The notes below the pieces were generated by a model that saw only the letters and a list, made by a program, of their open reading frames with translations, was not told where the DNA came from and did not search any database. From the NCBI RefSeq assembly GCF_045037415.1, contig NZ_CP173438.1: a stretch of 64,000 nucleotides of DNA; one strand, given 5' to 3'. Below, piece by piece: positions 3,214 through 22,978 of this stretch. The position numbers and the translations under genes are program-made. Origin of the DNA: Escherichia coli. GTDB lineage: Bacteria > Pseudomonadota > Gammaproteobacteria > Enterobacterales > Enterobacteriaceae. Position 1 is the stretch's first letter. Each line of letters begins with the position of its first letter.

Positions 3214-3655
3214 GGTAGGCGCAGCAAACGTCGCATCAGGCATTGATGTCGGATGCGGCGTAAACGCCTTATCCGACCTACAAAAATCACGCCAAATCAG
3301 GCTATTGCGCTGTCTGACGTAGGCCTGATAAGACACGTCAGCATCGCATCAGACATTGATGCCGGATGCGGCGTAAACGCCTTATCCGACCTACAAAAAT
3401 CACGCCAAATCAGGCTATTGCGCTGTCTGGCGTAGGCCTGATAAGACGCGGCAAGCGTCGCATCAGGCGTTGATGTCGGATGCGGCGTAAACGCCTTATC
3501 CGACCTACAAAAATCACGCCAAATCAGGCTATTGCGCTGTCTGGCGTAGGCCTGATAAGACGCGTTAAGCGTCGCATCAGGCGTTGATGTCGGATGCGGC
3601 GTAAACGCCTTATCCGACCTACAAAAATCACGCTACATCAGGCTATTACTCAGTC
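3214..3655. repeat. Tandem array of four ~114-bp REP/BIME-type palindromic units
   Basis: Unit beginning gtaggcctgataagacgcg..cgcatcaggc..gatgtcggatgcggcgtaaacgccttatccgacctac recurs at 3319, 3432 and 3546 with few substitutions, after a partial first copy. Confidence 0.85.
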
Positions 3656-14089: not shown

Positions 14090-14215
14090 AATTGTCGGAT
14101 GCGCTCCGACCTACATCTGGCAACGGCTGTAGGTCGGATAAGATGCGCCAGCATCGCATCCGACAACAAGCGCCGGATGCGGCGTGAATGCCTTATCCGG
14201 CCTACATTCGGCAAG
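14090..14215. repeat. REP palindromic elements downstream of acs
   Basis: gtcggatgcgctccgacctac, ctgtaggtcggataag and gccggatgcggcgtgaatgccttatccggcctac motifs of the REP family. Confidence 0.7.
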
Positions 14216-20208: not shown

Positions 20209-21558
20209 TTAGATAGCCCAGCCACCCGCATAGAAGGTCACCAGCGCCACGGCAATAACGACCGTACCGATGTTCAACTTGCGCCATTCGCCGGAAACCA
20301 GACGACCAATCACCAGAGTCGCGAAGCCAATCATGATGCCTGTTACGATGTTACAGGTCAGCACGATGAATACCGCCGTAACCAGACCCGCCATCGCATC
20401 AACAAAATCAGCAAAGTCGATTTTCGCCACGTTGCTCAGCATCAGCAGGCCAACGTACATCAGCGCCGGAGCCGTTGCGTACCCCGGAACGAGGTAAGAG
20501 AGCGGAGAGAGGAACAGAATCAGCAGGAACAGCACGCCAACGGTGATAGCCGTCAAACCGGTTTTACCGCCCGCCGCCGTACCCGCCGCAGACTCGATGT
20601 ATACCGCTGCCGGAGCTGCACCCACCAGGCCAGAAAAAACGCTGCTCATGGAGTCGGTGGTCAGTGCTTTCCCGCCGTCGATGATCTGCCCATCTTTATC
20701 CAGCAGGTTCGCCTGACCGGCGACGGCACGGATAGTTCCGGTGGCATCAAATACTGCCGTCATCACCAGTGCCAGAACACTTGGCAGGACTACAGGATTC
20801 AGCGCGCCCATAATGTCCAGGCTGCCTATCAGTGAATTGCCGTTTTCATCGCTCAATGAAGGCATGGCGAAAACGCCGGAGAAATGGACGTTAGGATCGA
20901 AGATCAAACCGACAATTGAGATACCGATAATGGTCAGCAGAATGCCGCCAGGGACTTTCAGTTTTTCCAGGCCGATAATCACTGCCAGCCCCACCAACGA
21001 CATCATCACCGGAAAGGTCGTAAAATCCCCCAGCGCGACGGGCAGACCATCAAGCGGGTTTTTAATCACCAGACCGACACCATTAGCGGCAATGAGCAGC
21101 AGGAACAGACCGATACCAATCCCCGTGCCGTGCGCCACACCGTGCGGCAAGTTGCGCAAAATCCAGCTACGGATACCCGTGGCAGAAATTACCGTAAACA
21201 GCACACCCATCAGGAACACGGCACCCAGCGCGACAGGTACGCTAATATGTTGCCCCAGCACCAGACTGAATGCGGTAAACGCCGTCAGAGAGATGGCGCA
21301 ACCAATCGCCAACGGCAGATTAGCCCACAGACCCATCACGATAGAACCGAGTCCGGCAACCAGACAGGTTGCAACGAAAACTGCCGCAGGCGGGAAGCCC
21401 GCTTTACCCAACATGCCTGGAACGACGATAACCGAGTAGACCATCGCCAGAAACGTTGTTAACCCGGCAACCACTTCCTGACGGACAGTGCTTCCACGTT
21501 GTGAAATTTTAAACCAGGCGTCGAGTGAACCGCCGGTACGCGCTGATGGCGTAGACAT
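20209..21558 (-). CDS. ghxP: Guanine/hypoxanthine permease (NCS2/AzgA family)
   Basis: 449-aa polytopic ORF starting [29 protein letters not shown], AzgA-like purine permease (K-12 yjcD). Confidence 0.82.
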
Positions 21559-21966
21559 AAGAAAACATCCCCTGAGAGTTTAATTTTCGTCAAGATGCGT
21601 GGCGGACAATCCCCTGCCAGCGAAACGTTATCTTCCTGCTCCAGGTTTGCGACAATTTGCTGCGTCGCAAAAAAAGCAAACGTTTAGCTCCGCGCATACA
21701 AAACGGGTGGTAAAAAAAGCAAACGATTATCCGGCGATCATAGCGGCTTTTTCAACCGAAGTTTGCTGCTTTTTTCTCTTTTATTGTCTTGACGATGAAA
21801 AACCAGGCAATTGATGCGCAAACGTTATCGTCGATGCGCAAGATTGCAGCGTTATCGAGCCGTATACCGTTCAGGATTGCGATAAAAAATCGTCTGAGAT
21901 GACAAAAATATTGCGGCTAAAAAGTGTACTTTTACACTGGCGAAGAAACGCCGGTAACATACAATT

Positions 21967-22110
21967 AAAGCATCAACACCAACCGGAACCTCCACCACGT
22001 GCTCGAATGAGGTGTGTTGACGTCGGGGGAAACCCTCCTGTGTACCAGCGGGATAGAGAGAAAGACAAAGACCGGAAAACAAACTAAAGCGCCCTTGTGG
22101 CGCTTTAGTT
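21967..22110 (+). ncRNA. ryjA: Candidate small RNA (position and size consistent with RyjA)
   Basis: Sigma-70-like promoter TTACAC-17bp-TAACAT at 21932-21960, then ~140 nt ending in a hairpin aaagcgcc-cttgt-ggcgcttt plus T-run at 22083-22110; no coding signal. Confidence 0.4.
22083..22110 (+). terminator. Rho-independent terminator hairpin at the soxR 3' end (probably bidirectional)
   Basis: 8-bp GC-rich stem aaagcgcc/ggcgcttt, 5-nt loop, followed by agttttgtt. Confidence 0.5.
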
Positions 22111-22569
22111 TTGTTCATCTTCCAGTAAGCGTGCGCCGGTACCTTCTTCTCCTAAGCGGTCGCCCGGGTTACGCAACGGGCAATCACTGCGCGAAAGGCA
22201 GCCACAACCAATACATCCATCCAGTTCGTCACGCAGCGCCACTAAGGTATGAATGCGCCGATCCAACTCTTCTCGCCATTGGGACGAAAGCTGTTTCCAC
22301 TCTTTCGCACTTAACGTATGCCCTTCTGGCAACACGCCAAACGCTTCACGAATGGTTGCGAGCGGAATGCCAATACGCTGAGCAATTTTGATAATTGCGA
22401 CATATCGCAACACATCACGTTTATATCGCCGCTGATTGCCGCTATTACGGATACTGGTAATCAACCCTTTGCTTTCATAGAAATGCAGCGCCGATACCGC
22501 CACACCGCTGCGTTTCGCCACTTCGCCGGGTGTTAGCAGCGCTTTAATGCGGGGTAATTTCTTTTCCAT
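22105..22569 (-). CDS. soxR: Redox-sensitive MerR-family activator SoxR
   Basis: 154-aa ORF with MerR HTH and C-terminal [2Fe-2S] cluster motif [12 protein letters not shown]. Confidence 0.96.
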
Positions 22570-22580
22570 AAATCGCTTTA

Positions 22581-22598
22581 CCTCAAGTTAACTTGAGG
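22581..22598. promoter_or_regulatory. SoxR operator in the soxS promoter
   Basis: Perfect 18-bp palindrome CCTCAAGTTAACTTGAGG between divergent soxR and soxS starts. Confidence 0.8.
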
Positions 22599-22654
22599 AA
22601 TTATACTCCCCAACAGATGAATTAACGAACTGAACACTGAAAAGAGGCAGATTT

Positions 22655-22978
22655 ATGTCCCATCAGAAAATTATTCAGGATCTTATCGCATGGATTGACG
22701 AGCATATTGACCAGCCGCTTAACATTGATGTCGTCGCAAAAAAATCTGGCTATTCAAAGTGGTACTTGCAACGGATGTTCCGCACGGTGACGCATCAGAC
22801 GCTTGGCGATTACATTCGCCAGCGCCGTCTGTTACTGGCCGCCGTTGAGTTGCGCACCACCGAGCGTCCGATTTTTGATATCGCAATGGACCTGGGTTAT
22901 GTCTCTCAGCAGACCTTCTCCCGCGTTTTCCGTCGGCAGTTTGATCGCACTCCCAGCGATTATCGCCACCGCCTGTAG
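22655..22978 (+). CDS. soxS: AraC-family superoxide response regulator SoxS
   Basis: 107-aa ORF MSHQKIIQDLIAWIDEHIDQPLNIDVVAKKSGYSKWYLQRMFR recognised as SoxS. Confidence 0.96.
   Translation: MSHQKIIQDLIAWIDEHIDQPLNIDVVAKKSGYSKWYLQRMFRTVTHQTLGDYIRQRRLLLAAVELRTTERPIFDIAMDLGYVSQQTFSRVFRRQFDRTPSDYRHRL

Follow-up and report, generated by a model that had tools for sequence, protein, structure and literature searches.

Positions 21972-22112 on the plus strand of the window (the 64,000-nt stretch of Escherichia coli DNA analysed in this work) are almost certainly the gene ryjA (sraL), whose product is a non-coding regulatory RNA of Enterobacteriaceae, 141 nt long and highly structured. The first description of RyjA/SraL dates from 2001, and its characterisation has followed; what lies at 21972-22112 is this already known RNA and not a new RNA gene.

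Identity and genomic setting of the RNA

21972..22112, plus strand: RyjA/SraL small RNA, 141 nt, running from A21972 through the U-tail; assigned by Rfam RF01408 and by identity to MG1655

When the whole window was scanned against Rfam, the sraL family (RF01408) matched 21972-22112 on the plus strand with a score of 153.3 bits (E 1.1e-34; the curated gathering score is 39 bits). The match is untruncated, spanning model positions 1-142 of 142, and its E-value places the unit as a whole far beyond chance. In the alignment with E. coli K-12 MG1655 the RNA was identical at 141 of 141 positions to the ncRNA ryjA (b4459; NC_000913.3, 4277926-4278066). RNA sequence, length, strand and the flanking genes ghxP and soxR are all alike in the two strains. 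In the MG1655 annotation ryjA sits between soxR (4277469-4277933) and ghxP, on the strand opposite to soxR, and the 8-nt overlap with soxR and the opposite orientation are the same in the window. The 281-nt region around ryjA is 99% identical between the window and MG1655, with no differences in the RNA and four substitutions upstream of it, between -55 and -16. This region was found in 5420 of 5426 complete E. coli genomes.

The sequence-only reading had proposed a ~140-nt non-coding RNA, named as RyjA, between ghxP (yjcD) and soxR and on the strand opposite to soxR, and had named alignment to annotated ryjA and a covariance-model search as ways to check it. Both support the proposal: the alignment by its complete identity and the same strand relation to soxR, the covariance model by its full-length sraL match, and the strand and the coordinates of the annotated MG1655 gene agree with the proposed unit. 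Published work describes a 140-nt RNA that is specific to stationary phase in both E. coli and Salmonella (PMC2190706), and E. coli RyjA has been detected on northern blots (PMC12956327).

The curated MG1655 record annotates ryjA, whereas the automatically annotated RefSeq E. coli records that we inspected carry no ryjA feature. Beneath the best 15 matches of the 281-nt region soxR was the sole feature listed, and the SK1144 record, inspected in full, had no ncRNA feature. An example is NZ_AP018784.2 (L002), where positions 4594637-4594917 are 100% identical in sequence. Left unmarked by NCBI automatic annotation in the inspected records, ryjA looks there like empty intergenic DNA.

In a pattern scan covering one genome per species there were 98 matching loci, 97 of them enterobacterial sraL copies from about 25 genera. 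The remaining match, in a Thermoproteota MAG (L025), lacked terminator and promoter features alike and was set aside as due to chance. Structure statistics were calculated on 89 distinct homologs, promoter columns on all 97 copies, aligned at the RNA start. All 14 divergent homologs tested scored 104-165 bits on RF01408; these included copies from Shimwellia, Phytobacter, Kosakonia, Buttiauxella, Atlantibacter, Klebsiella, Cedecea and Raoultella. Salmonella SraL belongs to the same family (the copy of S. enterica subsp. diarizonae scored 164.5 bits on RF01408) and resembles the E. coli RNA in the convergent soxR, the promoter type (-10 followed by TAA), the terminator and the GUGCUC core of the tig-pairing segment.

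A convergent soxR follows sraL directly in 96 of the 97 homolog loci, and a divergent ghxP lies upstream wherever the locus extends that far. The distance to ghxP is 412-434 nt in Escherichia and in the Citrobacter freundii group, and approximately 1090-1330 nt elsewhere. In most genera a gene encoding a 222-aa protein of the glutathione S-transferase (GST) family (Pfam GST_N, E 1.8e-16) stands between ghxP and sraL; it was found in locus L040 (2394-3062, minus strand) and in 74 other homolog loci. Salmonella has this gene, Escherichia and the Citrobacter freundii group do not, and its presence or absence explains the two spacing classes. A tblastn search of the ghxP-ryjA spacer (21559-21971) revealed no remnant of the GST-family gene (E > 1 throughout).

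The same 413-nt spacer has some further features. It contains the window's best match to the PurR operator consensus (GCGCAAACGTTATCGT, 14/16, at 21816-21831), a 23-nt direct repeat, GT(C/G)G(C/T)AAAAAAAGCAAACG(T/A)TTA, at 21664-21686 and 21707-21729, the sequence GCGAAACGTTATC at 21620, and 4 of the 36 plus-strand AAACGNTN sites of the window. The PurR-like sites probably reflect control by the purine repressor of ghxP (yjcD), which we take to be a member of the PurR regulon. Elsewhere in the window there are four matches to naRNA4 (RF02564; 69-77 bits), all on the minus strand, at 3322-3391, 3435-3505, 3549-3619 and 14132-14202. Three of them are in tandem with a spacing of about 114 nt; they are REP/BIME-type extragenic palindromes.

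The enterobacterial ghxP-sraL-soxR block was also encountered in a Bacillota MAG (L046), in Chryseobacterium sp. 18061 (L060) and in two 'Proteobacteria' MAGs (L009 and L017). The SoxR and GhxP proteins of the Bacillota MAG are 99-100% identical to those of E. coli. Contamination or mis-binning of contigs in public assemblies seems to account for all four.

Conserved structure and the terminator shared with soxR

21972..22021, plus strand: 5′ domain, recognised by covariation
22022..22075, plus strand: invariant core, recognised by conservation; it consists of GUCGGGGGAAACCCUCC, a short hairpin formed by 22036-22039 and 22050-22053, and the A/G-rich block GAUAGAGAGAAAGACAAAGACCGG at 22052-22075
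22081..22111, not assigned to one strand: intrinsic terminator hairpin common to ryjA (plus) and soxR (minus), recognised by fold and pairing
22105..22569, minus strand: soxR coding sequence, 154 aa, convergent with ryjA, from the ORF and annotation

The minimum-free-energy fold of the single sequence was mildly better than that of shuffled sequences (z = -1.9). For the 89 homologs the consensus structure consists of 6 helices with 33 pairs in all, and 99% of the cells are paired; in a control, sliding the 3′ partners by 1-3 columns left 35-58% paired. Changes on both sides of a pair occurred at 8 pairs in 73 cells, compared with 4.2 pairs and 19.9 cells in shuffles, and none of 500 shuffles reached the observed values. 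Most of the covariation is located in the outer 5′ stem, formed by nt 2-7 and nt 44-49 (21973-21978 with 22015-22020), where four pairs have compensatory double changes in 17, 24, 6 and 18 of the 89 sequences. It encloses an inner stem of CCUC with GAGG (21989-21992 with 22009-22012). There is less covariation in the hairpin of nt 65-68/79-82 and in the terminator. The long-range 5′ stem predicted from the alignment is thus supported by covariation. The remaining helices are invariant and neither support nor contradict the model; helices 3-5 are 100% paired and almost invariant.

The search pattern prescribed RNA positions 12-22 and 53-64; their 100% conservation follows from this and was not used as evidence. 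The segment nt 79-104, which the pattern did not fix, had a mean majority fraction of 0.96 in the 89 homologs. The least conserved segment of the RNA was nt 23-37, with a mean majority fraction of 0.58.

In the consensus scan the hairpin at 22081-22111 had 13 pairs (6 G-C) and a 5-nt loop and was followed by TGTTCATCTT. Terminator-like sites as such are at chance frequency in this neighbourhood (2 in 21500-22700 compared with 2.1 +/- 1.5 in shuffles). Among the 89 homologs 99.6% of the cells of the hairpin were paired. Folding of the minus strand gave the same hairpin, followed by UUUGUUUUCC. Having an A-rich 5′ side and a U-rich 3′ side, the hairpin can terminate both ryjA and soxR, and it has been reported that the 'SraL terminator ... 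overlaps the terminator of soxR' (PMC2190706). The soxR stop codon (the reverse complement of 22105-22107) is within the 3′ arm of the hairpin, and the last 8 nt of the soxR coding sequence, stop included, overlap ryjA. The GC-rich hairpin and T-run overlapping the soxR stop, as described from the letters, are therefore real features of the locus.

This arrangement raises the alternative that the RNA acts mainly in cis, as an antisense to the 3′ end of the soxR mRNA, or, in the weakest form, that it is a by-product of a bidirectional terminator. The RNA does cover the soxR stop, the two transcripts are complementary over the terminator hairpin, and the tail-to-tail arrangement is kept in 96 of 97 loci. 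Moreover, RNase III alters the band pattern of SraL, and cleavage at the shared terminator was suggested (PMC2190706). However, no more than 8 nt of the soxR coding sequence are overlapped here, and in many genera the sRNA ends before it reaches the soxR stop (by ~2 to 504 nt, a rough estimate), so that the coding-sequence overlap is not conserved. Among the window ORFs and in the hairpin scan we found no extended complementarity to the soxR mRNA beyond these 8 nt and the shared hairpin. Neither the invariant core nor the covarying 5′ stem is part of any overlap, and a by-product would not have kept them; trans targets have been validated by compensatory mutations (PMC3753932). We consider a mainly cis-acting RNA quite improbable and favour the trans-acting regulatory RNA; a cis role on soxR may exist alongside the trans role.

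Promoter and coding potential

21919..21923, plus strand: conserved A-tract, -53 to -49, recognised by conservation in 97 homologs
21932..21960, plus strand: TTACAC-17-TAACAT, promoter-like element of the sequence-only reading; present, probably not functional
21937..21944, plus strand: conserved upstream block CTGGCGAA, -35 to -28, from the 97-homolog alignment
21960..21968, plus strand: -10 TACAAT (21960-21965) and TAA (21966-21968), sigma-S-type, recognised by conservation

Transcription of the RNA had been attributed to a TTACAC-17-TAACAT element. The element is present in the sequence, with TTACAC at 21932-21937, a 17-nt spacer and TAACAT at 21955-21960, but its hexamers are not the conserved promoter elements. 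The alignment of the 97 homologs puts the conserved -10 sequence at TACAAT followed by TAA: there is no exception at A-11, A-9 and T-7, conservation of A-5 is 98%, and that of T-12 and T-6 is 86%. At -13 the window carries A, and 44% of the homologs carry C. Upstream, the consensus of -35 to -28 is CTGGCrAA, with an invariant G-32 and a 92% conserved A-29. It includes a degenerate -35-like hexamer, TGGCGA, at 21938-21943, 16 nt ahead of the -10; Buttiauxella and Cedecea have TTGAAA in the same register. Farther upstream, A is the majority base in 71-91% of 97 distinct homolog promoters at each position of the A-tract (1.0-1.5 bits per column), which may be an UP-element-like promoter feature. 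On the strength of this conservation the true promoter elements probably lie 5 bp downstream of the hexamers first proposed, with A21972 as the start.

The competing reading is that the sigma-70-like TTACAC-17-TAACAT drives the RNA, with a start near 21967. Both hexamers are there with the ideal 17-nt spacing, and a consensus scan lists the site (as TTTACA-18-TAACAT, with 9/12 matches). Against it, sites of this kind occur at chance frequency (3 in 21500-22700 compared with 1.6 +/- 1.3 in shuffles), and the hexamer columns (-40 to -36 and -17 to -13) are nearly unconserved in the 97 homologs, at 0.04-0.8 bits, whereas TACAAT with TAA is nearly invariant. Comparison with MG1655 points the same way. 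There TAACAT is TGACAT, and it is one of the four upstream substitutions that creates TAACAT in the window; MG1655 makes the RNA, yet its hexamer lacks the near-invariant A at position 2, while the TACAAT and TAA block is unchanged. The annotated 5′ end, A21972, is 11 nt past TAACAT and 6 nt past TACAAT. The poor conservation, the MG1655 sequence and the distance to the 5′ end indicate that the hexamers of the sequence-only reading are probably not functional, and transcription from them is very improbable. What looks to the eye like a plausible sigma-70 promoter may be a coincidence peculiar to one strain; here conservation across species locates the -10 five bases downstream.

The conserved -10 with TAA and the degenerate -35 fit the published RpoS-type sraL promoter, which was described as having a -10 box and an 'extended -10 motif TAA' (PMC3753932). 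Compared with the usual marks of RpoS promoters (a strong -10 with TAA after it, as in CTAYRCTTAA, a degenerate -35, and a C at position -13), the window has the -10 with TAA and the degenerate -35, but not the C at -13. In Salmonella, RpoS ChIP gave more than 100-fold enrichment at sraL, and rpoS dependence was observed with lacZ fusions and northern blots (PMC3753932); deletion of rpoS reduced SraL reads in RNA-seq from 23180 to 38 (PMC4014581). By analogy we infer that the promoter would depend on sigma-S in this strain as well. SdsR and GadY are likewise stationary-phase sRNAs with sigma-S promoters that have a weak -35 and a strong -10 (PMC4152358). They differ from SraL in that their sequences and targets are unrelated to it, and in that SraL is predominantly a ligand of ProQ (PMC8136791). 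In E. coli a 2026 study, in which the 35 bp preceding the ryjA start were exchanged, stated that RyjA 'starts with A' (PMC12956327).

The earlier statement that the unit has no convincing ORF or Shine-Dalgarno sequence stands, with the qualification that a 26-codon AUG ORF lies inside the RNA (22007-22087) and has no Shine-Dalgarno sequence. At the start position of this ORF 19 of 89 homologs have ATG, 31 have CTG and 23 have TTG; only 20 of 89 preserve the length of the frame, and 19 homologs lack any ATG ORF. We rejected the possibility that the unit encodes a small protein, and give it a practically negligible chance: the 26-codon ORF and a 62-codon ORF (21899-22087) are mechanically present, but the longer one begins upstream of the transcript, the shorter one has unconserved start and frame, and conservation tracks RNA helices with compensatory changes, not codons.

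Targets and proposed mode of action

21996..22005, plus strand: CACGUGCUCG, nt 25-34 of the RNA, complementary to the tig 5′ UTR, from the local duplex

In E. coli the predicted pairing with tig comprises 7 + 3 bp with one bulged U, between nt 25-34 of the RNA and tig positions -29 to -19, and the site adjoins the Shine-Dalgarno sequence on its upstream side. In Salmonella the corresponding SraL-tig site of '7 and 3 bp' was proved by compensatory chromosomal mutations (PMC3753932). Whole-molecule duplex prediction against the tig and rho leaders was abandoned: it returned meaningless full-length duplexes, no better than those of shuffled sequences, and a windowed scan was substituted. The windowed scan gave -16.4 kcal/mol for the local duplex of nt 24-35 with tig -30 to -18, an energy equalled by a fraction of 0.48 of shuffled sRNAs, so that computation alone proves nothing about this pairing. 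Only 18 of 89 homologs have the tig-pairing 7-mer, which falls within the least conserved segment of the RNA; tig repression is therefore probably not what conserves the RNA across genera. An RNA-seq study found no significant change of tig attributable to SraL, and deletion of sraL had no fitness cost in stationary-phase competition (PMC4014581).

The second known target is the rho leader. The best site of the windowed scan was at -287 to -266. The rho leader is about 255 nt long, and this site probably lies upstream of the rho transcript. Along the rho leader the windowed scan singled out no pairing site unambiguously. According to published work SraL pairs with the rho leader and blocks premature Rho-dependent termination (PMC6582626, PMC12360218, bioRxiv 10.1101/2024.02.02.578684), with ProQ and/or Hfq involved in the regulation (reviews; PMC7192607). 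DsrA, ArcZ and RprA act similarly on rpoS, where they pair with a long leader ahead of the ribosome-binding site and so stop premature Rho termination (PMC6582626). SraL differs from these sRNAs in that its target is the leader of rho itself, which makes an autoregulatory loop, described in Salmonella only.

Several proteins have been connected with the RNA. [quoted passage not shown] Hfq stabilises SraL about 3-fold in Salmonella (PMC2190706), whereas co-immunoprecipitation in E. coli did not confirm Hfq binding (cited in PMC2190706). The RF01408 entry carries the label 'Hfq binding RNA', whereas in the later literature ProQ is dominant in stationary phase; the label may be out of date. Decay of SraL in Salmonella needs polyadenylation by PAP I, PNPase and the degradosome (PMC2190706), and in an E. 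coli pcnB mutant ryjA was among the most up-regulated transcripts (PMC5389530).

By analogy, mostly with Salmonella, the following sequence of events may be proposed for RyjA. RNA polymerase with sigma-S (RpoS) would transcribe ryjA when cells enter stationary phase and under osmotic stress; in Salmonella SraL is expressed in stationary phase, in SPI-2-inducing conditions and upon osmotic shock (PMC3753932). Binding of ProQ, and less so of Hfq, would stabilise the RNA, which would act in trans through short imperfect base-pairing. Pairing just upstream of the tig ribosome-binding site would lower the amount of trigger-factor mRNA, whereas pairing in the rho leader, over or near a Rho-utilisation site, would prevent premature termination and raise rho mRNA. 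Finally, PAP I would polyadenylate the 3′ end, and PNPase and the degradosome would then degrade the RNA. It counts against the mechanism here that its functional steps were worked out in Salmonella and not with this E. coli sequence. The target, RpoS and ProQ data are all from Salmonella; the E. coli literature that we found deals with expression, polyadenylation and capping (PMC12956327, PMC5389530), and in the RyjA/SraL literature searched we found no direct target validation in E. coli.

The two ends of the conservation range are of some interest for the function of the RNA. GAUAGAG-GAAAGACAAAGACCGG (22052-22075) and GUCGGGGGAAACCCUCC are almost invariant across about 25 genera, whereas the tig-pairing segment is the least conserved. 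In the RyjA/SraL literature searched no function was stated for the A/G-rich block. It is conceivable, though we think it rather unlikely, that the ancestral job of RyjA/SraL was something other than tig repression; candidates would be base-pairing of the invariant block with the rho leader, or titration of ProQ by a high-occupancy ligand in stationary phase, when about half of the ProQ-bound reads come from this RNA. That conservation does not follow the best-known target site is a modest lead for studies of SraL, of rho autoregulation and of ProQ.
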